Of a stretch of 35,116 nucleotides of DNA, positions 1-33,754 are shown piece after piece. The stretch lies in the IMG/VR virus record IMGVR_UViG_2718218135_000003. One strand, 5' to 3'. The notes below the pieces were generated by a model, which saw only the letters and a program-made list of their open reading frames with translations, ran no database searches and had not been told where the DNA came from. The translations under genes were made by a program, and so were the position numbers. This DNA comes from a virus. Taxonomy: Duplodnaviria > Heunggongvirae > Uroviricota > Caudoviricetes. Each line of letters starts with the position of its first letter. Within the stretch, counting starts at the first letter, position 1.

Positions 1-900
1 TTAACGCAATAATGGACAATCTGGTGGTAATCGACAACGCAACGCCGCCGGAAGTATTTCAATATGAAAGTTTTGTCCGCTCAACGGTTCGCCATCAAGA
101 TTAAAAGTGATTTCGTGTGGGGCTTGTATATCAAACCACGACGAAGCGCCTTCGATAATATTCGGGTTATCTTCGTCAGATTTTAAGGTTGATACGAGAG
201 CCGGAAGAATTTCATCGCCGGTAAAAATGCGCAGTTGCAGCAAGCCATCGTTAATTAACGCGTTCGGACACAATTGCTGACCGCCACCGGCCTGACGCCC
301 GTTACCAATACCAATGACCAGGGCGTCACCTTGCCAGTGAAAGTTTTCACCGCGGATTTCACAACGGTCCGGTTGCAGAGTATCCATGCGCATTAAGCCA
401 TGAATGATGTAAGAGACGCCACCCAGCGCGGCTTTTAATTTTTCCGGCGTTTCTGTGGTAATACGCGTCCCAAATCCGCCTGTCGCCATATTAATAAAAC
501 AGGTTTGTTTGTTGACCTGCGCCATATCTATCGCAATGGCGTTACCGGCAATTGCCAGTTTCAGCGCCTTATCCAGTGCCTCAGGAATCCCTACACTGGT
601 GGCAAAATCATTGGCGGTTCCTAATGGCAAAATTCCCAGCGCGGGTATGTCATCCCCCTCACACTGAATCAACGCCGTAGAAACTTCATTAATGGTGCCA
701 TCGCCACCACCGGCAATCACCGTTGCGACGCCCAACTTCCGGGCCTCCTCTACATATCGTGCGGCATCGCCTTTCTCCCAGGTGACCCGCACATGGATCG
801 TCATTCCTTCCTCACGCAACAGCATAATTGCTTCGCGCAAGGGTAGATTGTCAGTACTTTTGCCATTAAGAATCAGTAAGCTGGCGGGAAATTCTGCCAT
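1..900 (-). CDS. yegS: Lipid kinase YegS (diacylglycerol-kinase-like catalytic domain); host gene
   Basis: 299-aa ORF spanning the start of the window to an ATG at 900; GGDG-type kinase motif ([13 protein letters not shown]) and overall match to recalled E. coli YegS; length equals YegS. Confidence 0.85.
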
Positions 901-1314
901 GATCGTATGTGCCTTTATGATTGGTCTGTAGATAGTGTAGAGCAGAAAACAAAAGGTGGAGTCAGAACAGGATGAAAGTCGGAGGATAAAAAGTCAGTTC
1001 AAGTATGGAGGATTCAGTGGTTACCACCAGGAGCTTGCAATGGGGACAGCGAATACTAACGGCTGCCACCGATAAATTTCAAAAAAGAGCATATGCCTAA
1101 TATTCAACCAAACAGTGGCATCTTAAATATACTATTCCAAATATATTAAAGCCCCCATGGAGTTACCCTGAAGGGCCTCAATGTCCGTAATTCCTACTTA
1201 TGTAGGAAATGTTGTACAGAACATTTATTATAATCCTATTCAATTATAATAATCATGCCATTATTATATTTAAACACTAGAGAGTGTCGTTGGTATTTAA
1301 TGGGGGAAGGTGAG

Positions 1315-1632
1315 ATGAAAAAGATAGCTGCTATATCATTAATTAGTATTTTTATTATGTCTGGTTGTGCTGTGCATAATGATGAGACAAGTATCGGTAA
1401 ATTTGGTCTTGCATATAAAAGTAATATTCAGCGTAAACTCGATAACCAATACTACACCGAAGCCGAAGCTTCTTTAGCCAGGGGCAGAATATCTGGTGCA
1501 GAAAATATAGTAAAAAATGATGCAGCCCATTTCTGTGTTACTCAGGGCAAAAAAATGCAGATAGTTGACCTGAAGACAGAAGGTGCAGGATTACATGGCG
1601 TCGCTCGTCTGACATTCAAATGTGGAGAGTGA
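1315..1632 (+). CDS. yegR: Small lipoprotein YegR (host gene); start taken at internal ATG
   Basis: 105 aa from MKKIAAISLISIFIMSGC: signal peptide plus lipobox (MSGC); upstream part of the 125-aa ORF has no such features. Sits next to yegS as in E. coli. Confidence 0.6.
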   Translation: MKKIAAISLISIFIMSGCAVHNDETSIGKFGLAYKSNIQRKLDNQYYTEAEASLARGRISGAENIVKNDAAHFCVTQGKKMQIVDLKTEGAGLHGVARLTFKCGE

Positions 1633-1694
1633 GAATATTTTTTGGTAAGCGTCAAACATGCGCGTTCTGGTTGTGCTTAGCCGGAACCTGTGCG

Positions 1695-1727
1695 AGCACG
1701 ATGCCGTTACGTGAAAGGCATCGTGCT
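1695..1727. other. Perfect 11-bp stem / 11-nt loop hairpin between yegR and attL
   Basis: AGCACGATGCC-gttacgtgaaa-GGCATCGTGCT read directly; no adjacent T-run, so function (terminator, REP-like element) is unclear. Confidence 0.35.
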
Positions 1728-1790
1728 ATGAAGGGAGATTCTATCGATGTGGTCAATGGAAGACGGTGACCAGGGATAGGGCTTATGCAT

Positions 1791-1817
1791 AAAAAATAAG
1801 CCCGTGTAAGGGAGATT
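1791..1817. repeat. attL: attL core: 27-bp direct repeat AAAAAATAAGCCCGTGTAAGGGAGATT
   Basis: Identical 27-mer at 33584-33610; lies just outside int on the left, the partner just outside ogr on the right, as expected for an integrated P2-type phage. Confidence 0.85.
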
Positions 1818-1896
1818 TAGGGTGTCACCAGTAGGGGCTTTCAACGGTACAATGCGGGTTTGAGCGGCATAAATTACCACTGAAAGCCCTTAAACG

Positions 1897-2910
1897 TTAC
1901 TCTACTGTGGACACGGTGTGGACACTCTCGGCTTCAGTACCACCTCTTAGCGGATTAAGAGAAATGGCGTCCTGAAGGTACTCTGGCGCAAAATGAGCGT
2001 AAACCATAGTTTGCTCAATCCGCGTGTGACCTAGTATCCGTTGTAGCGTGATAATACTTCCTCCATTAATCATGAAATGAGTGGCAAAGCTGTGCCTTAG
2101 TGCATGTGTGGCTTGCCCCGTTGGCAAATCCGGTTTTATTGCTTTCATTGTTCGTCTGAAGCGAGGGTAATCAGCATCAGGGAATAAAAAACCTCGTTTG
2201 TTATCCGCGATCATTTTGGCAACAGCCTCTGAGATCGGGACGGTGCGTGGTTTGTTTGTTTTCGTTTTAACAAACGTGACGCGGTTATGGATGATATTTT
2301 CTGCTTTCAAACGAGCTGCTTCTCCCCAACGTGCTCCTGTACTCAGGCAAAGAATCGCAATCTTTTTGTTGTCGCCGTCAAGTGCTGCAAGCAGTAAGGC
2401 AATTTCTTCCTGTGTGAGATAGCCTGTTTCTGGTTTTTCCTCCTTAAGCCTCTTTGTCCCTCTGATAGGGTGCTCACCAAAGAATAACTCCGCTTCAATC
2501 AGGGCTGTAAACATGCCGCTAATACATGTTAAATCACGATTGATACTCGAAGGTTTAATACCCTGACTTCTTCGGGTGGCGCAGTACTGGCTGATAAGGG
2601 ATTTCGTGATTTGAAATGCGCATGGGTCATTCGTTATTTTTGTGAAGATTTCAATTTTTCCAAGATTAGATTTCCCATGCTCTTCGTGTTTACCCTTTAA
2701 ATCCCACCAGATCTGTGTCAGTTCCGACAGACGTCGTTTGTCTGTTGGTTTTGATAGCCATTCTTTATTGTGGTGGTTGTACAACGTGTATTTTTCGAAA
2801 GCGACAGCTTCGCTTTTCTTATCAAACTTCCTACGGATGCGTTTTCCGTTACGTCCAGTAGGGCGGATGTCCACTTCATATCGACCATCATCGAGTTTTT
2901 TGATTGCCAT
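1897..2910 (-). CDS. int: P2-type integrase (tyrosine recombinase)
   Basis: 337 aa, same length as P2 Int; C-terminal catalytic residues (HxLRHSFATHF...GHTRIEQTMVYAH); position next to att core and C repressor. Confidence 0.9.
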   Translation of the reverse strand: MAIKKLDDGRYEVDIRPTGRNGKRIRRKFDKKSEAVAFEKYTLYNHHNKEWLSKPTDKRRLSELTQIWWDLKGKHEEHGKSNLGKIEIFTKITNDPCAFQITKSLISQYCATRRSQGIKPSSINRDLTCISGMFTALIEAELFFGEHPIRGTKRLKEEKPETGYLTQEEIALLLAALDGDNKKIAILCLSTGARWGEAARLKAENIIHNRVTFVKTKTNKPRTVPISEAVAKMIADNKRGFLFPDADYPRFRRTMKAIKPDLPTGQATHALRHSFATHFMINGGSIITLQRILGHTRIEQTMVYAHFAPEYLQDAISLNPLRGGTEAESVHTVSTVE

Positions 2911-3025
2911 CAGAAAACCCTCCGAGTGGTACTTTTTTTTGCTACTACTAATCGCTTTTTTCGTGGTGGCTGAAATTTAGCCACCAATAGTAGGCACTTG
3001 TGATGAATATATTCACGATAAATTG

Positions 3026-3325
3026 TTAACCAGTCTTTTGACCGGAGTGGGGCGACGTTGTTTCGTTTTGCCCAAAGTGTGCGAGAGCGGGCGCAATTTG
3101 CCCGGCTTCTGGAGCTACCTGATCAGTCATGAACCACAAAGTATATTTAGTAAATCTGGGATGTTGTAAGACCTTCATTATGGCTTCAACTCCAGCGTTT
3201 TTTGACCGGCTCTCATAGCTCGAAAGTGAGCTGTAGGCTACACCAGTTAATTCACTGAATTCTTTACGGTTTAACCTTTCAGATTCACGGATTAGCTTCA
3301 ACTTCTCCGAAACGTCTATTGACAT
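3026..3325 (-). CDS. C: Immunity repressor C (P2 C-like)
   Basis: 99 aa from internal ATG at 3325 (GGAG 6 nt upstream on minus strand); C-terminal half matches recalled P2 C (FTKYTLWFMTDQVAPEAGQIAPALAHFGQNETTSPHSGQKTG); divergent from cox. Confidence 0.85.
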   Translation of the reverse strand: MSIDVSEKLKLIRESERLNRKEFSELTGVAYSSLSSYESRSKNAGVEAIMKVLQHPRFTKYTLWFMTDQVAPEAGQIAPALAHFGQNETTSPHSGQKTG

Positions 3326-3402
3326 AATTACTCCGATTGCGTAATTTCTTGCTGATAGTGTGAAGTATTGTGCTTCTGGAGTTATCCTTTTAGGCAATAA
3401 TT

Positions 3403-3421
3403 AGCCATTAGGAGCCATTAG
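3403..3421. promoter_or_regulatory. Tandem direct repeats AGCCATTAG-g-AGCCATTAG in C/cox switch region (candidate operator half-sites)
   Basis: Two exact 9-mers at 10-bp spacing, followed by a degenerate third copy (AGCACTAAG), immediately upstream of cox; P2-type C repressors are known to bind direct repeats. No promoter elements confidently placed. Confidence 0.3.
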
Positions 3422-3446
3422 AAGCACTAAGGGAGAATCGTAGCAG

Positions 3447-3722
3447 ATGAATAGACAGCTTGTAAGCGTGACTGATGCCGTGCCTTATCAGGAGTTTGCA
3501 AAACTCATTGGTAAAACTCCAAGAGCTGTAAGGGGCATGATTGAGAAAGGGAAATTACCAGTTATTGAGATTACTGACCCTCAGTCAGTATCGGGGCGTG
3601 CTGGTGAATATTGGGTATACCTTCCGGCATGGAATAACGGACTAAAACTGGCTTATGAAAGCCGTCCTAAAGAAATTCGTGACGGCTGGTTGATGTGGTT
3701 AGGTCTCGGTGAACCACGTTAA
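3447..3722 (+). CDS. cox: Cox (excisionase / lytic-switch repressor)
   Basis: 91 aa, near-identical over most of its length to recalled P2 Cox (AVPYQEFAKLIGK...GRAGEYWVYLPAWNNGLKLAYESRPKEIRDGWLMWLGLGEPR). Confidence 0.9.
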   Translation: MNRQLVSVTDAVPYQEFAKLIGKTPRAVRGMIEKGKLPVIEITDPQSVSGRAGEYWVYLPAWNNGLKLAYESRPKEIRDGWLMWLGLGEPR

Positions 3723-3732
3723 GGAGAACCGT

Positions 3733-3903
3733 ATGAATGAGCCTCGTTGTATTGCTCAGTTATTGCGTAACGAAAGCCCCAGGGCGATTGACTTCACCAT
3801 CACCCACGGTAAGGGGCGTAAGGGAATCATTATCCGCACCAAAAAACAGAGTCCGTTAAAAAAGGCTCTGACCTTTCTGAAAAGCCGGAGGGTCTGGAAA
3901 TGA
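3733..3903 (+). CDS. Small early-operon protein (P2 orf78 position), hypothetical
   Basis: 56 aa from ATG at 3733 preceded by AAGGAG; basic protein; position between cox and B. Confidence 0.5.
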   Translation: MNEPRCIAQLLRNESPRAIDFTITHGKGRKGIIIRTKKQSPLKKALTFLKSRRVWK

Positions 3904-4400
3904 CAGTGATGACGCTCAATCTCGTTGAAAAACAGCCAGCAGCTATGCGCCGGATAATTGGTAAGCATCTGGCCGTCCCTCGCTGGCAGGAGACATGCGA
4001 TTATTATAATCAGATGATGGAACGCGAACGGCTAACGGTTTGCTTCCATGCGCAGTTAAAACAGCGTCACGCAACGATGCGTTTTGAAGAAATGAACGAC
4101 GTCGAACGTGAACGGCTGGTTTGTGCAATTGATGAACTGCGTGGGGCATTCTCAAAACGCCGTCAGGTCGGTGCAAGTGAGTATGCATATATTAGCTTTT
4201 TAACTGTCAGTCAGCGCCGTACTTTATTTATGCATGCCGGATTGACTGAAAAAGAATTCAACCAGCCATACTGGCGAATTAATGAAGAATCATGTTACTG
4301 GCGTGATGCCTTATTCCGTGCATTACGTGAATTATTCAGCCTGTTTGAGTATGCACCGACAATTCTGACGTCGGTAAAACCAGAGCAATATCTGCATTAA
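3900..4400 (+). CDS. B: Replication protein B (DnaB-helicase loader of P2)
   Basis: 166 aa, same length and position as P2 B; overlaps previous stop (ATGA). Confidence 0.8.
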   Translation: MTVMTLNLVEKQPAAMRRIIGKHLAVPRWQETCDYYNQMMERERLTVCFHAQLKQRHATMRFEEMNDVERERLVCAIDELRGAFSKRRQVGASEYAYISFLTVSQRRTLFMHAGLTEKEFNQPYWRINEESCYWRDALFRALRELFSLFEYAPTILTSVKPEQYLH

Positions 4401-5036: not shown

Positions 5037-5312
5037 GTGGCTTCTGTTTCTATCAGCTGTCCCTCCTGTTCAGCTACTGACGGGGTGGTGCGTAACGGCA
5101 AAAGCACTGCCGGACATCAGCGCTATCTCTGCTCTCACTGCCGTAAAACATGGCAACTGCAGTTCACTTACACCGCTTCTCAACCCGGTACGCACCAGAA
5201 AATCATTGATATGGCCATGAATGGCGTTGGATGCCGGGCAACCGCCCGCATTATGGGCGTTGGCCTCAACACGATTTTACGTCACTTAAAAAACTCAGGC
5301 CACAGTCGGTAA
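5037..5312 (+). CDS. insA: IS1 InsA (transposition regulator; N-terminal part of InsAB' transposase)
   Basis: 91 aa [37 protein letters not shown]... matches recalled IS1 InsA; A6C slippery tract (A_AAA_AAC, 5288-5294) near its end. Confidence 0.9.
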
Positions 5313-5734
5313 CCTCGCGCATACAGCCGGGCAGTGATGTGATTGTCTGCGCTGAAATGGACGAACAGTGGGGATACGTCGGGGCTAAATCGCACCAGCG
5401 CTGGCTGTTTTACGCGTATGACAGGCTCCGGAAGACGGTTGTTGCGCACGTATTCGGTGAACGCACTATGGCGACACTGGAGCGTCTTCTGAGCCTGCTG
5501 TCGGCCTTTGAGGTCGTGGTATGGATGACGGATGGCTGGCCGCTGTATGAATCCCGCCTGAAGGGAAAGCTGCACGTAATCAGCAAGCGATATACGCAGC
5601 GAATTGAGCGGCATAACCTGAATCTGAGGCAGCACCTGGCACGGCTGGGACGGAAGTCGCTGTCGTTCTCAAAATCGGTGGAGCTGCATGACAAAGTCAT
5701 CGGGCATTATCTGAACATAAAACACTATCAATAA
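5231..5734 (+). CDS. insB: IS1 InsB reading frame (expressed as InsAB' by -1 frameshift)
   Basis: 167-aa frame matching recalled IS1 InsB, overlapping insA in the -1 frame. Confidence 0.85.
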
Positions 5735-5990: not shown

Positions 5991-6262
5991 GTATTCGTAT
6001 TGAAATTGGCGAACGTTATGTCGTTACCAGTGACAGCTTTCAGTTTATTCTCCACGAGAAAAAGAGAGCGGAAAGCGGTAAAAACGCCGGTCAGGAATGG
6101 CTGTCGGTGGTTGGTTATTACCCGAAATTAAGCCAGCTCGTTTCCGGCCTGATGCATCACGATATTCTGACCGGAAGCGCAAAGTCTTTTGCTGATTTAA
6201 ACGTGCAGGTTGAGCAACTCAGCAAGCGTTGTTCAGAGGCTTTTGGCTCATATGGCCGTTAA
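5987..6262 (+). CDS. Early-operon hypothetical protein (P2 orf83 position)
   Basis: 91-aa ORF overlapping neighbours by ATGA and by 11 nt with A; no recognisable motif. Confidence 0.5.
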   Translation: MSIRIEIGERYVVTSDSFQFILHEKKRAESGKNAGQEWLSVVGYYPKLSQLVSGLMHHDILTGSAKSFADLNVQVEQLSKRCSEAFGSYGR

Positions 6263-8528
6263 AGCCTCCGGGCGTTTTGTCCCTCCGTCAGCATTTGCCG
6301 CAGGCACCGGTAAGGCGTTTACCGGTGCTTATGCATGGAACGCGCCACGCGAGGCTGTCGGGCGCGAAAGACCCCTTACACGTGACGAGATGCGTCAGGT
6401 GCAAGGTGTTTTATCCACGATTAACCGCCTGCCTTACTTTTTGCGCTCGCTGTTTACGTCACGCTATGACTACATCCGGCGCAATAAAAGCCCGGTGCAC
6501 GGGTTTTATTTTCTCACATCCACTTTTCAGCGTCGTTTATGGCCGCGCATTGAGCGTGTGAATCAGCGCCATGAAATGAACACCGACGCGTCGTTGCTGT
6601 TTCTGGCAGAGCGTGACCATTATGCGCGTCTGCCGGGGATGAATGACAAGGAGCTGAAAAAGTTTGCCGCCCGTATCTCATCGCAGCTTTTCATGATGTA
6701 TGAGGAACTCTGCGATGCCTGGGTGGATGCGCATGGCGAAAAAGAATCGCTGTTTACGGATGAGGCGCAGGCTCACCTGTATGGTCATGTTGCTGGCGCT
6801 GCACGTGCTTTCAATATTTCCCCGCTCTACTGGAAAAAATACCGTAAAGGACAGATGACCACGAGGCAGGCATATTCTGCCATTGCCCGCCTGTTTAACG
6901 ATGAGTGGTGGACTCATCAGCTTAAAGGCCAGCGTATGCGCTGGCATGAGGCGTTACTGATTGCTGTCGGGGAGGTCAATAAAGACCGTTCTCCTTATGC
7001 CAGTAAACATGCCATTCGTGATGTGCGTGCACGCCGCCAGGCAAATCTGGAATTTCTTAAATCGTGTGACCTTGAAAACAGGGAAACCGGCGAGCGCATC
7101 GACCTTATCAGTAAGGTGATGGGCAGTATTTCTAATCCTGAAATTCGCCGGATGGAGCTGATGAACACCATTGCCGGTATTGAGCGTTACGCCGCCGCAG
7201 AGGGTGATGTGGGGATGTTTATCACGCTGACCGCGCCGTCAAAGTATCACCCGACACGTCAGGTCGGAAAAGGCGAAAGTAAAACCGTCCAGCTAAATCA
7301 CGGCTGGAACGATGAGGCATTTAATCCAAAGGATGCGCAGCGTTATCTCTGCCGTATCTGGAGCCTGATGCGCACGGCATTCAAGGATAATGATTTACAG
7401 GTCTACGGTTTGCGTGTCGTCGAGCCACACCACGACGGAACACCGCACTGGCATATGATGCTTTTTTGTAATCCACGCCAGCGTAACCAGATTATCGAAA
7501 TCATGCGTCGCTATGCGCTCAAAGAGGATGGCGACGAAAGAGGTGCCGCGCGAAACCGTTTTCAGGCAAAACACCTTAACCGGGGTGGTGCTGCGGGGTA
7601 TATCGCTAAATACATCTCAAAAAATATCGACGGCTATGCACTGGATGGTCAGCTCGATAACGATACCGGCAGGCCGCTTAAAGATACTGCCGCGGCTGTT
7701 ACCGCATGGGCGTCAACGTGGCGCATCCCGCAATTTAAAACGGTTGGTCTGCCGACAATGGGGGCTTACCGTGAACTACGCAAATTGCCTCGTGGCGTCA
7801 GCATTGCTGATGAGTTTGACGAACGCGTCGAGGCTGCACGCGCCGCCGCAGACAGTGGTGATTTTGCGTTGTATATCAGCGCGCAGGGTGGGGCAAATGT
7901 TCCGCGCGATTGTCAGACTGTCAGGGTTGCCCGTAGCCCGTCGGATGACGTTAACGAGTACGAGGAAGAAGTCGAGAGAGTGGTCGGCATTTACGCGCCG
8001 CATCTCGGCGCGCGTCATATTCATATCACCAGAACGACGGACTGGCGCATTGTTCCGAAAGTGCCGGTCGTTGAGCCTTTGACTTTAAAAAGCGGCATCG
8101 CCGCGCCTCGGAGTCCTGTCAATAACTGTGGAAAGCTCACCGGTGGTGATACTTCGTTACCGGCTCCCACACCTTCTGAGCACGCCGCAGCAGTGCTTAA
8201 TCTGGTAGATGACGGTGTTATCGAATGGAATGACCAGGAGGTCGTGAGGGCGCTCAGAGGTGCATTAAAACACGGTCTGAGAAGACCAAACCGTCAGCAA
8301 AGAAACGGAAGCCCGTTAAAACCGCATGAAATAGCGCCATCGGCCAGACTGACCCGGTCGGAACGAATGCAAATTACCCGTATCCGCGTTGACCTTGCTC
8401 AGAACGGTATCAGGCCACAGCGATGGGAGCTTGAGGCGCTGGCGCGTGGCGCGACCGTAAATTATGACGGGGAAAAATTCACGTATCCGGTCGCTGATGA
8501 GTGGCCGGGATTCTCAACAAACATATAA
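6252..8528 (+). CDS. A: Replication initiation protein A (rolling-circle nicking endonuclease)
   Basis: 758 aa from ATG at 6252 (MAVKASGRF...), close to P2 A in length and recalled sequence; the 772-aa ORF in the track begins at TTG. Confidence 0.9.
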   Translation: MAVKASGRFVPPSAFAAGTGKAFTGAYAWNAPREAVGRERPLTRDEMRQVQGVLSTINRLPYFLRSLFTSRYDYIRRNKSPVHGFYFLTSTFQRRLWPRIERVNQRHEMNTDASLLFLAERDHYARLPGMNDKELKKFAARISSQLFMMYEELCDAWVDAHGEKESLFTDEAQAHLYGHVAGAARAFNISPLYWKKYRKGQMTTRQAYSAIARLFNDEWWTHQLKGQRMRWHEALLIAVGEVNKDRSPYASKHAIRDVRARRQANLEFLKSCDLENRETGERIDLISKVMGSISNPEIRRMELMNTIAGIERYAAAEGDVGMFITLTAPSKYHPTRQVGKGESKTVQLNHGWNDEAFNPKDAQRYLCRIWSLMRTAFKDNDLQVYGLRVVEPHHDGTPHWHMMLFCNPRQRNQIIEIMRRYALKEDGDERGAARNRFQAKHLNRGGAAGYIAKYISKNIDGYALDGQLDNDTGRPLKDTAAAVTAWASTWRIPQFKTVGLPTMGAYRELRKLPRGVSIADEFDERVEAARAAADSGDFALYISAQGGANVPRDCQTVRVARSPSDDVNEYEEEVERVVGIYAPHLGARHIHITRTTDWRIVPKVPVVEPLTLKSGIAAPRSPVNNCGKLTGGDTSLPAPTPSEHAAAVLNLVDDGVIEWNDQEVVRALRGALKHGLRRPNRQQRNGSPLKPHEIAPSARLTRSERMQITRIRVDLAQNGIRPQRWELEALARGATVNYDGEKFTYPVADEWPGFSTNI

Positions 8529-8631
8529 AAATGATTGAAATGGTTGATTTTGCTTCCACTTGATGGTTGGTATCAGCAACTGATGGATCATGCGGAACTG
8601 CGTGGCGATCTTGCTTTGGAAGCATGTCATT

Positions 8632-8850
8632 ATGACTAATGCATACATTACTAGCTATGCGTCCGGTTCCGCCATTGTACTCGTGCAAGAGTCTGCGGCT
8701 GATGGCTATTGTTTACAAATTATGGTCAAAGAGAATCTGACCCTCTACGAGTTGGTCGGAGGGACTGAGATCGTCAGTGATAACTGCAGCCGTATGGGAG
8801 AAATCAATAATCCCAACCGTCCATATTTCTACCTTCACGCGTGCCCATAA
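8632..8850 (+). CDS. Hypothetical small protein in the A-cos variable locus (P2 orf91/tin position)
   Basis: 72 aa from internal ATG at 8632 of the 86-aa ORF; convergent with the RT gene; no motif recognised; coding status uncertain. Confidence 0.3.
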   Translation: MTNAYITSYASGSAIVLVQESAADGYCLQIMVKENLTLYELVGGTEIVSDNCSRMGEINNPNRPYFYLHACP

Positions 8851-8977: not shown

Positions 8978-9021
8978 GCTTAACGAAGTCATGTTGAGTT
9001 AATAACATTTTTTCGTTAAGC
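8978..9021. other. Long hairpin overlapping the RT stop codon (10-bp perfect stem, 24-nt loop with nested 5-bp stem)
   Basis: GCTTAACGAA (8978-8987) and TTCGTTAAGC (9012-9021) are exact reverse complements; inner ATGTT/AACAT pair at 8991-8995/9004-9008. Possible bidirectional terminator or structured RNA. Confidence 0.4.
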
Positions 9022-10559
9022 GCTGTGTTCCTTGTCGAATAAGTTCACTTCTTCTGGTGTAATATCATTATCCATTTCTTCGAATGCATCTAAATCCACA
9101 ATTTTTGTTTTTTTCAAAATTGATAGTATTTTCTGTTTGTTTTTACTTTTGGCTGAACCCGGAATCCACTCTACATCCCACAGGCCATCAATGGTAAATG
9201 TTTTTTTTCCCTTGAGTTCATCATTTATGCGTTGACATAGGGCTGTTTTGTAATCGCCTTCCCATTGTGTGTGTATCTTCCCTTGAACTCGTTGAAACCA
9301 AATATCTAACATTTCAGTATTTGGTTGTTTACCTAGTTTACAATGAAGTTGTTGTAACTTGCCAAATTTGAGTTCATCGTCGTCATAAAGGAAGGTCAAG
9401 AGTTTTGCGAAAATAGCCATTCCCACTGGGTAGGTGGTTGGGTTTTTAGCCATGATGCTTGAAATAATTCCAAGCATTGCATCTAGTTGATGCCCACTAT
9501 TTGTGATCTTTTTCTTCCTAAATAATTTTCGCAAGAAATCATTTAAATATCTAACTGTAATTTTGGAGTTTTGATGTTTTAAAGAAAATAAATATATTGC
9601 ATACAACATTTTCTGTAGGGAGTTGAACGACTTTTCTATAATATATTCTTTTTTTGCTGATTTAAGGGAGTGAAGAATGATGTCGTCATGTAGTTCTGTT
9701 TTTCTTGAGTTTAAATCAAGCCCAAACTCACCTAAGACCTCAACCAAACACTTTGAGATTTTGTCCAAATCATCTTTACTGCTTGAAAATATTCGATAAT
9801 CATCTCTGTAGCGAACTACTTTGTAATCCGTTATTTTTTGCTCTTCGGTTTTTTTCTTAGCTGTAAATCAATTTCGCCTAAAATTAATTCGGCAAATGTA
9901 TCCATCAACGTACTACCCAATGGTATTCCGTTTGTCTGATTACTCATCATCATCTGGATATGAGTGTCAATCAATCGTCCTGGGTTATTGTTATTTTCTT
10001 TCTTTTTGGCCTCTTCTTTTGAGATGAATACCCATTCAAAGCTATGAGTGTAAATAGAAGGGTAGAAGTTTGAAATATCTGTGCTGAACATGAACTCATA
10101 CTCAAGAGCCAATGAAAGACTTTTTTGTTCAAAATCTTCCCACCAGTTTAAAACAGATGCAGCTACGTTTGAGGTGTTCTTTTTGCTCACTGGGATACTT
10201 GAGCATAAAAAAAGATCATTAGACTCAAACTCTCTAAATTTATTCCTTATAGCATTCCAGTTGGAAGAGGATGTAATAAGTTTACAAAAATACACGTAGT
10301 ATAGAGGATTAATTAGTGTTATTCGTCGCCAGCTATATAAGCCATCTTTGCTGACTAAAACCTCGTAATTTATATTCTTCCCCATCAATGACTTGGAGTC
10401 AGGTTGGAAGTTGATTTTACCTTCATCTATCGCGGAGTTGATTTCTTCAAGCAAGGAAGAAAAATCGACATAACTGGGTAGCTCCAGAGTAGTGTATGAA
10501 TCATGCTGCAGAAAATACTTAAGCGCTCTACCAGTAGTTAATTCATAAATCTTTTTCAT
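9016..10559 (-). CDS. Abi-type reverse transcriptase (AbiK/Abi-P2-like), interrupted by a -1 frame change at an A7 tract (9849-9855); fused product about 514 aa
   Basis: N-terminal frame carries RT-like motifs (FSTDISNFYPSIYTHS; GIPLGSTLMDTFAELIL); the frame opening 5 codons upstream of its stop carries VVRYRDDYRIF (YxDD). AT-rich relative to flanks. Start at ATG 10559 (MKKIYELT) is an estimate. Confidence 0.7.
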
Positions 10560-10765
10560 AATTAGTGATTTCTTCTTAAGTTGCGCACAAATAACTACCT
10601 GTTTTCTATCATGATAACGATGCGAATGCGAGCAATTCAGGAAGTGCATTACTCTGCATCGAAGCGCACGCAAGTCAGAGAACAATAACTGCCTGGCGAC
10701 ATCAGGACTGGCGCGCTAGTTGAGTGGTCATGCAACTGCATTAAAACCGCCCCATGAAGCGGGCG

Positions 10766-10784
10766 GGCGAGGCGGGGAAAGCAC
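10766..10784. other. cos: cos site (19-nt cohesive-end sequence GGCGAGGCGGGGAAAGCAC)
   Basis: Exact match to the P2 cohesive end as I recall it; lies between the variable locus and Q, as in P2. Confidence 0.7.
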
Positions 10785-10925
10785 TGCGCGCTGACGGTGG
10801 TGCTGATTGTATTTTTTCAGCGTCTCAGCGCGTCGTGACGGCACTTAGTCTGCCCGTTGAGGCGTTGTGTGTCTGCGGGGTGTTTTGTGCGGTGGTGAGC
10901 GTGTGAGGGGGGGGGATGACGGGGT

Positions 10926-10954: not shown

Positions 10955-11989
10955 TCAGTCGTTGTCAGTGTCCAGTGAGTAGTTTTTAAAGCGGATGACC
11001 TCCTGACCGAGCCAGCCGTTTATCTCGCGGATCCTGTCCTGTAACGGGATAAGCTCATTGCGGACAAAGACCTTTGCCACTTTCTCAATATCACCCAGCG
11101 ACCCGACGTTCTCCGGCTTGCCACCCATCAACTGAAAGGGGATGCGGTGCGCGTCCAGCAGGTCAGCGGCGCTGGCTTTTTTGATATTAAAAAAATCGTC
11201 CTTCGTCGCCACTTCACTGAGGGGGATAATTTTAATGCCGTCGGCTTTCCCCTGTGGGGCATAGAGAAACAGGTTTTTAAAGTTGTTGCGGCCTTTCGAC
11301 TTGACCATGTTTTCGCGAAGCATTTCGATATCGTTGCGATCCTGCACGGCATCGGTGACGTACATGATGTATCCGGCATGTGCGCCATTTTCGTAATACT
11401 TGCGGCGGAACAACGTGGCCGACTCATTCAGCCAGGCAGAGTTAAGGGCGCTGAGATATTCCGGCAGGCCGTACAGCTCCTGATTAATATCCGGCTCCAG
11501 CAGGTGAAACACGGAGCCGGGCGCGAAGGCTGTCGGCTCGTTGAAGGACGGCACCCACCAGTAAACATCCTCTTCCACGCCACGGCGGGTATATTTTGCC
11601 GGTGAGGTTTCCAGTCTGATGACCTTACCGGTGGTGCTGTAACGCTTTTCCAGAAACGCATTACCGAACACCAGAAAATCCAGCACAAAGCGGCTGAAAT
11701 CCTGTTGCGAAAGCCACGGATGCGGGATAAATGTCGAGGCCAGAATATTGCGTTTGACGTAAATCGGCGAGCTGTGATGCACGGCAGCACGCAGGCTTTT
11801 CGCCAGACCGGTAAAGCTGACCGGCGGCTCATACCATCTGCCGTTACTGATGCACTCGACGTAATCCAGAATGTCACGGCGGTCGAGTACCGGCACCGGC
11901 TCACCAAAGGTGAATGCCTCCATTTTCGGGGCGCTGGCGGTCATTTTTTTTGCCGCAGGTTGCGGTGTTTTCCCTTTTTTCTTGCTCAT
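10955..11989 (-). CDS. Q: Portal protein Q
   Basis: 344 aa, same length and position as P2 Q; first gene after cos. Confidence 0.85.
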   Translation of the reverse strand: MSKKKGKTPQPAAKKMTASAPKMEAFTFGEPVPVLDRRDILDYVECISNGRWYEPPVSFTGLAKSLRAAVHHSSPIYVKRNILASTFIPHPWLSQQDFSRFVLDFLVFGNAFLEKRYSTTGKVIRLETSPAKYTRRGVEEDVYWWVPSFNEPTAFAPGSVFHLLEPDINQELYGLPEYLSALNSAWLNESATLFRRKYYENGAHAGYIMYVTDAVQDRNDIEMLRENMVKSKGRNNFKNLFLYAPQGKADGIKIIPLSEVATKDDFFNIKKASAADLLDAHRIPFQLMGGKPENVGSLGDIEKVAKVFVRNELIPLQDRIREINGWLGQEVIRFKNYSLDTDND

Positions 11990-19690: not shown

Positions 19691-20141
19691 GTTTAAGCGT
19701 TTTGAAGACCGGCTGACCGGACTGATTGAGTCGCTGTCACCGTCAGGGCGTCGGCGACTGGCGGTAGATATTGCGAAGAAGCTGCGCCAGCGCCAGCAGC
19801 AGCGAATTAAATTACAAAAAGCCCCGGATGGTACGCCGTATGTACCGAGAAAAAACCAACCAGTACGAAATAAGAAAGGCCGGATAAAGCGGGAAATGTT
19901 TGTGAAATTACGCACTAACCGGTTTATGAAAGCAACAGGTAGCGAGAGTGCGGCGGTGGTGGCGTTTGCCAGCGGAGTACAACGAATTGCGCGAGTACAT
20001 CAATTAGGGCTTAGGGATAAGCCGGGGCGTAATAGTGCTGTGGTGGAATATCCTGTTCGTGAGTTATTTGGTTTTGACAAGGAATCTATACAATTGATAG
20101 AAAGGGAGTTATTAGTGATTCTATCGAAAGATGTTATATGA
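19683..20141 (+). CDS. S: Tail completion protein S (3' portion compositionally atypical)
   Basis: 152 aa; N-terminal part matches recalled P2 S (MNEFKRFEDRLTGLIESLSPSGRRR); sequence from about 19850 is AT-richer, like the downstream cargo gene. Confidence 0.7.
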   Translation: MNEFKRFEDRLTGLIESLSPSGRRRLAVDIAKKLRQRQQQRIKLQKAPDGTPYVPRKNQPVRNKKGRIKREMFVKLRTNRFMKATGSESAAVVAFASGVQRIARVHQLGLRDKPGRNSAVVEYPVRELFGFDKESIQLIERELLVILSKDVI

Positions 20142-20893
20142 GACGGGTGTTTGTGGATAAAAAGTTTTCCATTTTGAGAAAAAGAGTAAAGCATTCTCAA
20201 AAGAAAGTTATGGATTGTATTATTGCTGACCATAATGCTGATATATGTGTGTTATGCGGGAGTTCTGACGATATTACTCGTGAGCACATTATTCCTCAGT
20301 GGGCCTTTGAGTCAAATGCTGAAAAATCTTTAATTAATAAAAAGAATAATCAGTCAACTCATTACATTAAAGCCACTGTACCAGCATGCAGAGTGTGCAA
20401 TTCTGATTTGCTGGGAGTGTTTGAGTATAACCTGAAGAAATTTCTTACGGAAAAGAGAGGGGAGGAGTTAACAGATTATGAGTATGATTGCATCATATGG
20501 TGGTTGCAATACATGGGTTTTAAGTTGCAATTAATGGATTTGCGGAACCGCTTTCTCAGGTATAAAGGTGGTGATTATATCCCGTTTCTTGCAAACTTCC
20601 CGGTTGCAATGTTTTGGGGGAATGTCGATACGACGCCGGGGGATGTCTTCAGGATTATACGAAAATCGCGACGCAATCTGATGTCGAAATGGAAGGATAA
20701 AAAACATAATTCTTTGATGGTTTTTGAAACATCAAACAAGAGTTTTCATTTCTTTCATAAGGTTGATGAATTTATTTTTATTGAAATTCCTCAGGTTAAG
20801 AAGGCGTTTTTCTTCTTTTTTAATAAAGAATTTGACAGCCATGATTTAGCTCATGAGGAGTGTATGAAGATTATAGAGAAGTGCTACAACTAA
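20138..20893 (+). CDS. Cargo gene between S and V: putative HNH-family nuclease (CxxC...EHIIP...CxxCN), unknown function
   Basis: 251 aa, strongly AT-rich and Lys/Phe/Asn-rich, unlike flanking tail genes; ICVLCGSSDDITREHIIPQWAFE ... PACRVCNSDL resembles an HNH zinc-finger core; ATG overlaps the S stop (ATGA); no counterpart in P2. Confidence 0.6.
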   Translation: MRRVFVDKKFSILRKRVKHSQKKVMDCIIADHNADICVLCGSSDDITREHIIPQWAFESNAEKSLINKKNNQSTHYIKATVPACRVCNSDLLGVFEYNLKKFLTEKRGEELTDYEYDCIIWWLQYMGFKLQLMDLRNRFLRYKGGDYIPFLANFPVAMFWGNVDTTPGDVFRIIRKSRRNLMSKWKDKKHNSLMVFETSNKSFHFFHKVDEFIFIEIPQVKKAFFFFFNKEFDSHDLAHEECMKIIEKCYN

Positions 20894-20970
20894 TATTTGT
20901 TATGTTGTGTCACAGCTGACAGAACCCTCCATGATTGCTGCTGGTATCGTCCAGCGGCATCCTTCCCGTT

Positions 20971-21606
20971 ATGAACACTCTCGCAAATATTCAGGAACTC
21001 GCGCGCGCACTGCGCAATATGATTCGCACCGGCGTTATCGTCGAAACCGACCTTAACGCCGGTCGCTGCCGTGTGCAGACCGGCGGCATGTGCACCGACT
21101 GGCTTCAGTGGTTGACCCATCGTGCCGGGCGTTCGCGTACATGGTGGGCACCTTCCGTGGGGGAACAGGTGCTGATTCTGGCCGTGGGCGGTGAACTTGA
21201 CACGGCGTTTGTTCTGCCGGGGATTTATTCCGGTGATAACCCCGCGCCGTCTGCGTCGGCGGATGCCCTGTATATCCGTTTCCCTGACGGGGCGGTGATT
21301 GAGTATGAACCCGAAACCAGTGCACTCATGGTAAGCGGAATTAAAACGGCCAGCGTGACGGCTTCTGATTCTGTTACTGCCACGGTGCCGGTGGTCATGG
21401 TGAAAGCATCAACCCGCATCACCATGGACGCACCGGAGGTGGTCTGCACCAACAGGCTGATTACCGACACGCTGGAAGTGCAGAAGGGCGGGACGATGCG
21501 CGGCAACATTGAACACACCGGCGGTGAACTCTCATCAAACGGTAAGGTACTGCATACCCATAAACACCCCGGCGACAGCGGCGGCACAACCGGGAGTCCT
21601 CTATGA
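20971..21606 (+). CDS. V: Baseplate spike protein V
   Basis: 211 aa from MNTLANIQELARALRNMIRTG, matching recalled P2 V; the track ORF begins at an upstream TTG. Confidence 0.85.
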   Translation: MNTLANIQELARALRNMIRTGVIVETDLNAGRCRVQTGGMCTDWLQWLTHRAGRSRTWWAPSVGEQVLILAVGGELDTAFVLPGIYSGDNPAPSASADALYIRFPDGAVIEYEPETSALMVSGIKTASVTASDSVTATVPVVMVKASTRITMDAPEVVCTNRLITDTLEVQKGGTMRGNIEHTGGELSSNGKVLHTHKHPGDSGGTTGSPL

Positions 21607-24663: not shown

Positions 24664-25104
24664 ATGAATTACATATATTCCGCGACTACAAACTCTTTCT
24701 ATCCGCTGGAGATGAAAGAGGATTACACTCAAGCTGACTCATGGCCAGATGATGCTGTTGAAGTTGATGAGCAAGCGTATATTGAGTTTTCCGGATTACC
24801 GCCGAAAGGAAAAATCCGTATCGCTGGAGAAAATGGTTTTCCTGCATGGTCCGAAATTCCACCACCAACACATGAGGAACAAATTGCTGCAGCCGAACTG
24901 GAGAAGCAGCAATTGATTAATCAGGCCAACGATTATATGAACAGTAAACAATGGCCTGGTAAAGCGGCTATTGGTCGTCTGAAAGGTGACGAACTGGCGC
25001 AATATAATTTGTGGCTGGATTACCTGGACGCACTGGAACTGGTCGATACTTCCGGTGCGCCAGATATTGAATGGCCTACGCCTCCGGCAGTTCAGGCCAG
25101 ATGA
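24664..25104 (+). CDS. G: Tail fibre assembly protein G (chaperone for the expressed fibre variant)
   Basis: 146 aa directly after H; P2 G position; conserved C-terminal region of tail-fibre assembly proteins. Confidence 0.75.
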   Translation: MNYIYSATTNSFYPLEMKEDYTQADSWPDDAVEVDEQAYIEFSGLPPKGKIRIAGENGFPAWSEIPPPTHEEQIAAAELEKQQLINQANDYMNSKQWPGKAAIGRLKGDELAQYNLWLDYLDALELVDTSGAPDIEWPTPPAVQAR

Positions 25105-25678
25105 CATCCGGCGCGGTGCTCGTATCTGTTGCCGTCACCGCGTCAATGTAATCCAGCACAGCGTTAAGTCGGGTGGTTTCTGCCTGCGTCAGCTTCCGCC
25201 CGGCCTGCAATTTCAGTTGAATCAGACTGATGGAAGCCATTGCAGTATCAATCAGTGACTGACGCAGTGCTTCTGCCGCGTCTACTGCGGCGCTATGCTG
25301 TGCCTCAGTATCGGTCACCCATTTCTTACCATCCCATTTATCGAATGGCGTTAACGGGGCGATAGTGGTTGTATTTTCAGGATAATCACCCGGAGCTGTG
25401 ATTTCTTTGGCGTCTCCCGTTTCGGTGTTATAGACGATTTCACCGCGATGGTCTGGCACATATTCCCATGAGTTTAAATCCATCGAACGGCAGATAGCAT
25501 AACCCGCCTTATGTATACCAGGTTCATCCAGACAGGAATATGCAGGGATACCGACACCAATGGCAAGATATTCATTTGAAGTAGAAATATATTCCCGAGT
25601 TTTACCATCATAGTTATAGACGGTAATATTCCCCGCCTTCGTGGCAATAAGCTCGCTATTTAATACGGCGTTATCCAT
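25076..25678 (-). CDS. Alternative tail fibre assembly protein (G') in the silent orientation
   Basis: 200 aa on the opposite strand inside the invertible segment; tail-fibre-assembly-like C-terminus; start overlaps the stop of the alternative fibre segment. Confidence 0.65.
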   Translation of the reverse strand: MDNAVLNSELIATKAGNITVYNYDGKTREYISTSNEYLAIGVGIPAYSCLDEPGIHKAGYAICRSMDLNSWEYVPDHRGEIVYNTETGDAKEITAPGDYPENTTTIAPLTPFDKWDGKKWVTDTEAQHSAAVDAAEALRQSLIDTAMASISLIQLKLQAGRKLTQAETTRLNAVLDYIDAVTATDTSTAPDVIWPELPEA

Positions 25679-26160
25679 TATGCAGCCCTCACGATATAGT
25701 TAAATGCAATATTTCGTGGACGGGTTTCACTCCCGCCAGTATTACCGATACTCCCTCGTGAATGAAGTGTCGGTGATGGGATCAGACTCCCTCCTGTATT
25801 TGCGGCATCAAGTCCCCGTCCTTGTGTGTATGTCTTTTTGAAAATCGTAGCCAGTTCCCATTCATCTTTTGTGTCGTAACCATCATTGGCAACAACAATA
25901 TGGCGGTGTTTTTCCAGCATCCCTGTCTGAATGCTCAATAAAACACGTCCTGCATCAATACCGCGCCCGTCATCCCAGCCACGAATAAACTCACCACGTA
26001 AATCAGGCAATTTATTTGTCGGATAAGCCTTTGCCAGTTCCGGGTATTCTTCAGCAGAAAAAGCCGCACCGTTGCATTTCAGCCAGCCTGTTGGCGGTGT
26101 GGCTGAAGGCCATGGAACAGGCACACCAACAGGTAATGCAGAGCCTTCTCCCAAACCAAC
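25678..26160 (-). CDS. Alternative tail-fibre C-terminal segment (Hv'), no own start; fused in-frame to H only after inversion
   Basis: Minus-strand frame reads ...LGLGE-GSALPVGVPVPWPSATPPTGWLKCNGAAFSAEEYPELAKAYP..., a motif typical of Mu S / P1 S / lambda Stf receptor-binding ends; the shared LGLGE codons lie in the crossover site. Confidence 0.6.
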   Translation of the reverse strand, partial: VGLGEGSALPVGVPVPWPSATPPTGWLKCNGAAFSAEEYPELAKAYPTNKLPDLRGEFIRGWDDGRGIDAGRVLLSIQTGMLEKHRHIVVANDGYDTKDEWELATIFKKTYTQGRGLDAANTGGSLIPSPTLHSRGSIGNTGGSETRPRNIAFNYIVRAA

Positions 26161-26171
26161 GTTTATGAAAA
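26146..26171. repeat. 26-bp recombination (crossover) site, right boundary of invertible segment
   Basis: TTCTCCCAAACCAACGTTTATGAAAA, closely similar to the hixL sequence as I recall it; inverted partner of 24278-24303. Confidence 0.7.
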
Positions 26172-26226
26172 TGCAGAGATAACGGGCAACTGGCATCATC
26201 TCCGGTTTTTATTCAGGGGGATGCTC

Positions 26227-26820
26227 ATGCTTATTGGCTATGTACGCGTGTCAACAAATGACCAGAACACGGAATTGCAGCGTAACGCGCTGGAGTGCGC
26301 AGGATGCGAGCGGATTTTTGAGGATAAAATCAGCGGCACGAAGTCCGACCGACCGGGACTGAAAAAACTGCTCAGAACATTATCAGCAGGTGACACTCTG
26401 GTAGTCTGGAAGCTGGACCGGCTGGGGCGTAGTATGCGGCATCTGGTCATTCTGGTTGAGGAGCTGCGCGAACGCGGCGTTAATTTTCGCAGCCTGACAG
26501 ATGCTATTGATACCAGCACGCCGATGGGGCGTTTTTTCTTTCATGTGATGGGTGCCCTGGCTGAAATGGAGCGAGAACTCATTGTCGAGCGGACACGCGC
26601 TGGACTGGAAGTGGCCAGAGCCAAAGGGCGTATTGGTGGCAGACGTCCGAAGCTCACCGGGAGTGAGTGGGAGCAGGCCGGGCGGTTGCTGGCTGCGGGG
26701 GAATCTCGTCAACGTGTGGCGCTGATTTTTGATATTGGCCTGTCCACGCTCTATAAAAAATTCCCCTCATCAGCGACAAAGAATAAATTGTGTCATCCCT
26801 TAGCCAACCGGGACAAATAG
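26227..26820 (+). CDS. pin: Site-specific DNA invertase (serine recombinase, Pin/Gin/Cin/Hin family)
   Basis: MLIGYVRVSTNDQNTELQRNALECAGCERIFEDKISGT...VVWKLDRLGRSM... matches recalled Pin/Gin; start at 26227 is 6 nt after a GGGGG ribosome-binding site. Confidence 0.85.
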   Translation: MLIGYVRVSTNDQNTELQRNALECAGCERIFEDKISGTKSDRPGLKKLLRTLSAGDTLVVWKLDRLGRSMRHLVILVEELRERGVNFRSLTDAIDTSTPMGRFFFHVMGALAEMERELIVERTRAGLEVARAKGRIGGRRPKLTGSEWEQAGRLLAAGESRQRVALIFDIGLSTLYKKFPSSATKNKLCHPLANRDK

Positions 26821-33263: not shown

Positions 33264-33482
33264 ATGTTTCATTGTCCTTTATGCCAGCATGCCGCACATG
33301 CGCGTACAAGTCGCTATATCACTGACACGACAAAAGAGCGTTATCACCAGTGCCAGAACGTGAATTGCAGCGCCACGTTCATCACTTATGAGTCGGTACA
33401 GCGATACATCGTGAAGCCGGGAGAAGTCCACGCCGTAAGACCGCACCCGTTGCCGTCAGGGCAGCAAATTATGTGGATGTAA
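33264..33482 (+). CDS. ogr: Late gene transcription activator Ogr (zinc finger)
   Basis: 72 aa from MFHCPLCQHAAHARTSRYITDTTKERYHQCQNVNCSATF..., matching recalled P2 Ogr with its Cys4 motif; upstream part of the 93-aa ORF is not P2-like. Confidence 0.85.
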   Translation: MFHCPLCQHAAHARTSRYITDTTKERYHQCQNVNCSATFITYESVQRYIVKPGEVHAVRPHPLPSGQQIMWM

Positions 33483-33583: not shown

Positions 33584-33610
33584 AAAAAATAAGCCCGTGT
33601 AAGGGAGATT
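33584..33610. repeat. attR: attR core: second copy of the 27-bp repeat AAAAAATAAGCCCGTGTAAGGGAGATT
   Basis: Exact duplicate of 1791-1817, downstream of ogr. Confidence 0.85.
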
Positions 33611-33754
33611 ACACAGGCTAAGGAGGTGGTTCCTGGTACAGCTAGCATTTTATGGGTTATGTTTTTCAGCGAAACGGATGATAACCTTAATAAATACAGC
33701 TGTATGTGATCGGTTTCTAAGAATTTTCCATCCGGGAAAAATAATCGAAATTAA

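Follow-up and report, generated by a model that had tools for sequence, protein, structure and literature searches.

Abi-P2, carried by P2-like prophages, is an abortive-infection system that consists of a single protein (PMC9508834). The allele with experimental data is that of prophage P2-EC30 (ORF570; PDB 7R08; Figiel et al. 2022, PMC9508834), for which T5 exclusion, polymerase activity and a trimer structure have been described. The EC30 enzyme is a stable trimer of bilobal subunits, in which RT-like fingers and palm are combined with a helical domain that replaces the thumb, and its DNA synthesis is primed on Tyr61 and yields untemplated single-stranded DNA; a Y61F result is quoted in the same work (PMC9508834). 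T5 exclusion needs the YRDD region, which has been shown for the EC30 protein only (PMC9508834, PMC8632793). RT-like fingers and palm followed by an alpha-helical domain, as well as protein-primed, untemplated DNA synthesis, are shared with Abi-P2 by AbiK of Lactococcus lactis and the class 1 UG/Abi RTs (DRT4, DRT6, UG14) (PMC9508834, PMC12783706), with no sequence homology reported between the helical domains of AbiK and Abi-P2 (PMC9508834).

P2-like phages carry a cos-proximal defence hotspot, where tin and old reside in P2 itself (PMC9122126), and AbiP2 is among the systems listed for P2 hotspots (PMC13586616). For the RT genes of these prophages, Odegrip et al. (2006) is the source cited by both PMC9508834 and PMC9122126. 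The gene considered here is already known, being present in GenBank as P2-EC58 ORF544 (AM157368); its protein, CAJ43157.1, is annotated as "putative reverse transcriptase" and is identical to the RefSeq protein WP_000725496.1.

We analysed a window of 35,116 nt, that is, the whole stretch of DNA of IMG/VR record IMGVR_UViG_2718218135_000003, in which an RT-like gene on the minus strand is split between two reading frames. Judged from its sequence, the locus is one gene, an EC58-type allele of Abi-P2. It is the same gene as P2-EC58 ORF544, in the same position between gpA and cos and with the same neighbour, ORF85. With EC30 Abi-P2 it shares 75% amino acid identity along the whole length, the motif A aspartate, YRDD, the priming tyrosine, the C-terminal helical domain and the location in a P2-like prophage. 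The EC30 gene, which is intact, is a different allele (72% nucleotide identity). Whereas ORF544 (WP_000725496.1) contains a run of eight A (A8), the window has seven (A7), and the gene is annotated as pieces of 242 aa and 250 aa. We consider it highly probable that this is the known Abi-P2 gene and that its one-base shortfall is unprogrammed, whether it arose by mutation or by base-calling error.

The Abi-P2 gene and its prophage setting

The window is 100% identical to E. coli S56 (assembly GCF_001901445.1; NZ_CP010242.1, 4139081-4174196, reverse complement). Within it, a complete P2-like prophage is flanked by yegS/yegR and cyaR/yegQ. The order of genes is gpA replication gene (6252-8528), RT, cos and portal gene Q (10955-11989). 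The position of the 19-mer GGCGAGGCGGGGAAAGCAC, which we take to be the P2 cos sequence, places the RT gene in the gpA-cos-gpQ hotspot, in agreement with the first-pass annotation, which had assigned it to the cargo position between gpA and cos (tin/old) in a P2-like prophage. That annotation had also described the gene as AT-rich relative to the backbone, and its GC content is indeed 34.8%, compared with 51.9% for the window. ORF85 accompanies the EC58-type cargo: the P2-EC58 record lists it, and the EC30-type locus lacks it. An IS1 insertion is present in the same prophage. An Rfam scan of the window revealed no RNA family near the RT gene, the only match being CyaR at 33587-33672, and there is no sign of a partner ncRNA like those of several other defence RTs.

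The two minus-strand frames had been interpreted as one gene encoding an Abi-P2-type RT-like polymerase, and the profile search suggested along with this proposal bears it out. The conceptually fused 514-aa protein matched the PADLOC AbiP2 profile with an E-value of 3.3e-160 (profile positions 4-487 of 489), phrog_12132 over positions 1-514 of 514, and Pfam RVT_1 with 41.4 bits, above the cutoff of 29.6. Its match to PDB 7r08_A (1e-257) aligns residues 1-508 with residues 32-540 of the chain, which comprises residues 1-541 of EC30 Abi-P2; the offset of 31 was used to convert residue numbers to those of the EC30 enzyme. Residues ~290-508 align to the helical domain of 7r08 without large gaps, in line with the long helical C-terminal domain predicted previously. 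Matches to other PADLOC profiles were far weaker (Drt6, 5e-47; UG14, 2e-45; Drt4, 4e-42; AbiK, 5e-31), and with NCBIfam Drt4 the score, 121.8, falls far short of the cutoff of 450. DNA identity of the gene is 99.3% with P2-EC58 ORF544 (AM157368.1, over 1544 nt) and 99.4% with phage pro147.

Full-length Abi-P2 similarity holds only for the fused protein. Alone, the upstream half matched profile positions 4-240 of PADLOC AbiP2 (2.6e-91) and the downstream half positions 265-487 (2.6e-50); neither half alone reached the Pfam RVT_1 cutoff in the profile search. We considered a split RT made of two separate genes and rejected it, given that each half corresponds to its own part of one AbiP2 profile; it is also disfavoured by the failure of either half to reach the RVT_1 cutoff and by the lack of a start codon of its own for YRDD. 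Both the motif A aspartate and YRDD are present, but in different reading frames of the window (Table 1).

The true start of the gene is likely ATG 10559. Longer ORFs starting at TTG 10685 or ATG 10649 were rejected because the upstream extension is not conserved between EC58 and EC30.

Table 1. Features of the Abi-P2 locus, with coordinates in the 35,116-nt window.
Feature	Coordinates	Strand	Description
ORF85	8590..8850	+	Small ORF without assigned function, located between gpA and the stop codon of the RT; phrog_13272
Downstream frame	9016..9849	-	Abi-P2 residues 238-514 and stop codon; remaining palm with YRDD, then C-terminal helical domain; in RefSeq, only 9016-9768 annotated (WP_249531191.1, "hypothetical protein")
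Second long run	9201..9211	-	G3A8 on the coding strand; intact in the window, break point in other strains (462-aa product)
YRDD catalytic motif	9799..9810	-	Fused-protein residues 251-254; Tyr251 is equivalent to Tyr282 in EC30 Abi-P2
A7 run, frame-break site	9849..9855	-	In intact alleles A8, AGA AAA AAA ACC/ACT, encoding R K K T
Upstream frame	9831..10559	-	Abi-P2 residues 1-237, covering the fingers, part of the palm and RT motifs A and B, followed by PKSKK (five residues out of frame) and TAA; in RefSeq WP_249531189.1, "RNA-directed DNA polymerase"
Motif A aspartate	10077..10079	-	D161 in FSTDISNFY
Tyr30	10470..10472	-	In LELPSYVDF; aligns with priming Tyr61 of EC30 Abi-P2 (LELPAYINF)
In-frame upstream extension	10560..10649	-	From ATG 10649; basis of the GenBank "ORF544" annotation in P2-EC58
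P2-type cos, GGCGAGGCGGGGAAAGCAC	10766..10784	+	207 nt upstream of the RT start

Reading frames and tract length in relatives

On the minus strand, the upstream ORF runs from ATG 10559 to TAA 9833-9831 and encodes 242 aa with the C-terminal end GEIDLQLRKKPKSKK (...LQLRKKPKSKK). The second frame, at -1, is open from 9868 to a stop at 9018-9016. The 35-nt overlap of the two frames contains exactly seven A, so phased that the 0-frame codons are AAA AAA; thus, a slippery heptamer of the X_XXY_YYZ type, A_AAA_AAA, is present at 9855-9849. When base 9849 is read twice, the two frames become one, encoding a 514-aa protein that contains ...LRKKTEEQKITDYKVVRYRDDYRIF.... The first possible start codon of the -1 frame is TTG 9768, downstream of YRDD, which is therefore out of reach of independent initiation. 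The first-pass annotation had noted the in-phase heptamer, the length of the fused protein and the need of a -1 shift to reach YRDD, all of which can be read directly from the sequence. Its further statement that either A6 or A8 would restore the frame is right for A8 only: with A6, the product ends as ...RKNRRAKNNGLQSSSLQR followed by a stop, and only A8 (or A5) restores the ORF.

A single uninterrupted ORF for the whole Abi-P2 enzyme is thus absent here, the A7 run breaking the frame after residue 237, and we file this copy as pseudogenised (or mis-called) and not as a working member of Abi-P2. With normal decoding, translation would end after residue 237 and five junk residues without reaching YRDD or any of the helical domain; the truncated product would retain the priming tyrosine and motifs A and B. 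As written, we infer, the sequence represents a pseudogene encoding a catalytically dead fragment. By analogy with EC30, an intact EC58-type enzyme would be expected to prime on Tyr30 and to make untemplated single-stranded DNA, consistent with the earlier description of the family as protein-primed and template-independent (PMC9508834, PMC9122126).

The comparison of tract length in related prophages that had been proposed as a check gave a consistent picture. Among 65 records of E. coli complete genomes with a copy at least 99% identical, judged by full-gene match lengths and annotation, 60 contain an uninterrupted 1545-nt gene with a single "RNA-directed DNA polymerase" annotation. In strain ECE313, the sole difference from the window's gene is A8 instead of A7, and the gene is one 514-aa CDS (WP_000725496.1). 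A8 is also found in all 12 IMG/VR and metagenome copies identified by a pattern scan that allowed any tract length, and the exact fused 514-aa protein occurs on 251 contigs. The EC30 gene, despite its divergence, likewise has A8 at LRKKT (AGA AAA AAA ACT) within one ORF.

The A7 variant is in the minority. Among the complete genomes, it was found at this site in S56 only. The exact 242-aa product of the window is encoded on 7-11 contigs from several independent runs, A7 being read in the DNA on 7 contigs; the backbones of the prophages that carry this product differ by ~1.5% from S56, and some A7 contigs also carry a lesion at the second run. A7-type products (...LRKKLKSKK) occur in two further allelic backgrounds, and A9 products (...LRKKN) are found as well (A7 in P0001, P0003 and P0005; A9 in P0004 and P0006), with the A7 (ACT) and A9 alleles of the further backgrounds (P0003-P0006) deduced from protein C-termini only.

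Other copies are damaged elsewhere. In strains DCE7, B7A, TW10573 and EC12, one base is lost at the second run (G3A8/G2A9), resulting in a 462-aa product, and the same truncation is present in two IMG/VR copies. A 307-aa product in the protein collection is consistent with a shift at a third run, and 1 of the 11 EC30-type copies is interrupted by ISEc12. Overall, inactivation affects ~8% of the copies of Abi-P2 in complete E. coli genomes: loss of one base in A8/A9 runs accounts for 5 of 65 copies, and the IS for 1 of 11 of the EC30 type. The A runs are recurrent break points of the gene family.

Origin of the missing base

The explanation that we prefer is that the A7 run is an A8 run from which one base is missing owing to an unprogrammed homopolymer indel. 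It is favoured because relatives have A8 and a single ORF, no stimulatory structure is found at the site, and copies are broken at other sites. The damage seen elsewhere in the family (four genomes at the second run and one EC30-type copy with ISEc12) points in the same direction, as does the IS1 insertion in this prophage. On the other side, the A7 run lies in the correct -1 phase and the shifted product is identical to the intact protein, which makes a trace of full-length enzyme from ribosomal or transcriptional slippage physically plausible; furthermore, the recurrence of A7 in other assemblies and allelic backgrounds and the existence of A9 could mean reversible switching as opposed to simple decay. 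The first-pass annotation had offered a mutation or sequencing error on the one hand and programmed slippage on the other; the evidence favours the former, whereas the latter fares poorly against A8 in the relatives, the lack of a stimulator and the breaks at other sites.

An unprogrammed shortfall has two possible origins, a real slipped-strand mutation and a residual base-calling error in the S56 assembly, of which we moderately favour the mutation. If the error is to blame, which we consider possible although rather unlikely, the S56 chromosome truly has A8 and an intact, working Abi-P2, one A having been dropped in homopolymer calling. Over 6.7 kb, S56 and ECE313 differ by only two indels, both in homopolymers, namely, A7/A8 in the RT gene and C9/C8 at 10907-10915, a pattern that speaks for an artefact but fits either origin. 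All lesions seen at the DNA level in the gene family are one-base deletions in A8/A9 runs, a typical long-read error. Moreover, the A7-bearing contig L007 shows several additional one-base deletions relative to the near-identical L008, including in the portal gene and cos; these look like long-read error, and part of the A7 recurrence may have the same source. However, a 50-kb sample of the S56 record is free of frameshifted genes, which indicates that the assembly is not generally error-ridden, no frame-broken gene other than the RT was seen in the 35-kb window, and the identical 242-aa product on 7-11 contigs comes from independent runs.

Apart from these two origins of an unprogrammed shortfall, the run could be a contingency tract. 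In this case, the A8 run, together with other A runs, would switch between OFF (A7/A9) and ON (A8) at high frequency, and lineages would shed and regain a costly abortive-infection defence. Length variants A7 and A9 in at least three allelic backgrounds, A7 in prophage backbones ~1.5% apart, retention of A8 in EC30 despite 28% nucleotide divergence and the inactivation of ~8% of the complete-genome copies would all be compatible with such phase variation. Nevertheless, we consider it improbable. Runs of at least 8 A number 2 in the EC58-type gene versus 2.45 expected from synonymous-codon shuffles, and 3 in the EC30 gene versus 1.96 expected (fraction of shuffles reaching the observed number, 0.26), and for runs of at least 7 A, too, the count does not exceed that obtained by shuffling synonymous codons of the same protein. 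Lys-rich, AT-rich coding predicts this many A runs, and nothing suggests selection for such tracts. Part of the tract variation may be sequencing error, and no reversion event was seen; in addition, A8 is short for a contingency tract in mismatch-repair-proficient E. coli.

A related idea is that of a leaky or switchable defence gene. The A7 allele would then act as a "savior indel", silencing a costly abortive-infection enzyme while slippage on the run yields trace full-length polymerase, or reverting to A8 at high frequency under phage pressure. If this were true, the recurrent A7, A9 and second-run variants in ~8% of copies would reflect on/off switching instead of decay. We think this, too, improbable, and leaky expression of a "savior indel" and reversible switching remain unlikely even when taken jointly. 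Slippery heptamers that lack stimulators exceed the 0.055% background of shifting in E. coli by only 2-10 fold (PMC4066793); at such rates, ribosomal slippage here would produce full-length protein at no more than a fraction of a percent.

The same rates count against programmed recoding, the least probable reading, according to which functional -1 slippage at A7, ribosomal or transcriptional, would supply a low dose of full-length, potentially toxic RT beside the truncated product. The A-rich heptamer in phase, with a 0-frame stop 5 codons downstream, resembles -1 frameshifting sites of the IS1 and dnaX type, YRDD is out of reach of independent initiation, and a review describes "savior indel" cases in which a low level of frameshifting compensates (PMC5009743). 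IS1- and dnaX-type sites, however, are conserved among homologues and usually have stimulators, whereas the site in the window is a minority variant among single-ORF homologues: the two-frame arrangement is absent from 60 of the 65 genome records, from 12 of the 12 viral and metagenome copies and from the divergent EC30 gene, all with a single frame and A8. Folding of the 89 nt downstream is no stronger than that of shuffled sequences (-10.6 kcal/mol versus -9.3 on average; z = -0.53), no GGAGG-like (SD-like) sequence occurs within the 35 nt upstream, and some A7 copies carry a second frameshift downstream, so that programmed recoding appears very improbable.

Consequences for annotation and for the family

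WP_249531189.1 and WP_249531191.1 belong to a single Abi-P2 gene, each representing one half, and should be handled as a frameshifted copy of it. In counts of defence systems of S56, Abi-P2 should not be scored as functional before the A run has been checked. Beyond annotation, the finding matters little for the locus itself. For the family, a recent survey found defence pseudogenes to be rare in P2 hotspots (PMC13586616). If the lesions present in ~8% of the copies are real, Abi-P2 would be an exception to this rarity; if they are long-read errors, they would call for caution in automated censuses of defence systems.

Homopolymer runs and an insertion in or near the Abi-P2 gene

Besides the A7 run, we identified a second homopolymer, G3A8, in the Abi-P2 gene (RT), which is unbroken in the window (Table). 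Among 65 records of complete E. coli genomes, four (DCE7, B7A, TW10573 and EC12) have lost one base at this run, which is likewise one base short in two of the 11 IMG/VR copies of RT. The G3A8 run is thus a repeated break point of RT among other strains. The loss results in a 462-aa protein that retains the RefSeq name “RNA-directed DNA polymerase.” A separate inactivation route for the Abi-P2 defence gene is insertion of ISEc12, an IS21-family element, which cuts the 5' end off the EC30-type allele in NZ_CM129876.1 (locus 113-3831).

Across 6.7 kb, the only indels between S56, the host of this prophage, and ECE313, a strain with the same RT gene but with A8 instead of A7, are the A7 run and the G9 homopolymer, which is one base longer in S56. 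This second length difference is relevant to the question of whether A7 originated by mutation or by sequencing error.

Table. Features of the prophage and its chromosomal neighbour
Feature	Coordinates	Strand	Location and remarks
IS1 family transposase	5037-5734	+	Prophage early region; programmed frameshift annotated
Small ORF, 86 aa (72 aa with later start)	8590-8850	+	Between gpA and the RT stop
G3A8 run	9201-9211	minus	C-terminal part of RT
G9 homopolymer (C9 on coding side)	10907-10915	+	Between cos and portal gene
246-aa hypothetical protein gene	20153-20893	+	Between virion morphogenesis gene and baseplate gene V
Recombinase-family (invertase-like) gene	26227-26820	+	Adjoins tail-fibre genes
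CyaR/RyeE sRNA	33587-33672	minus	Rfam RF00112, 100.7 bits

Surroundings and position of RT

The small ORF beside RT has a 1.9e-54 match to phrog_13272, a family of unknown function. It carries the name ORF85 in the record of P2-EC58, the prophage that gives the EC58-type Abi-P2 allele its name, but lacks an annotation in S56. Because the gap between RT and the replication gene gpA in the EC30-type locus is only 104 nt, ORF85 accompanies EC58-type cargo only.

RT has the exact coordinates 2765-4309 in about 20 complete E. coli chromosomes that are unrelated to one another (for example, NZ_CP048604.1, NZ_CP091839.1 and NZ_CP072802.1); these records therefore begin exactly where the prophage gpA does. 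It looks as if assembly software rotated these chromosomes to a replication-initiator-like gene. RT matches were also found on three plasmid-labelled records, of 216, 210 and 67 kb.

Other prophage features

The 246-aa protein gene lies in a low-GC island (37.7% over 20001-21000), which we take to be the orf30 position of P2. The protein matches phrog_10503 (unknown function), with no match among the PADLOC and NCBIfam profiles and an HNH_5 match below threshold only; the gene may be a further cargo gene.

The IS1 insertion is flanked by a DUF5405 gene and a TraR/DksA zinc-finger gene, the latter with a second DUF5405 gene on its far side; therefore, the prophage is damaged outside RT too. At the chromosomal boundary, the prophage adjoins cyaR, because CyaR/RyeE has ogr (33264-33482), a prophage gene, on one side and yegQ on the other.

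Finally, the tail-fibre and tail-fibre-assembly genes (about 25075-26196) are oppositely oriented and lie beside the invertase-like gene, an arrangement which suggests that this P2-like prophage has an invertible segment for host range.
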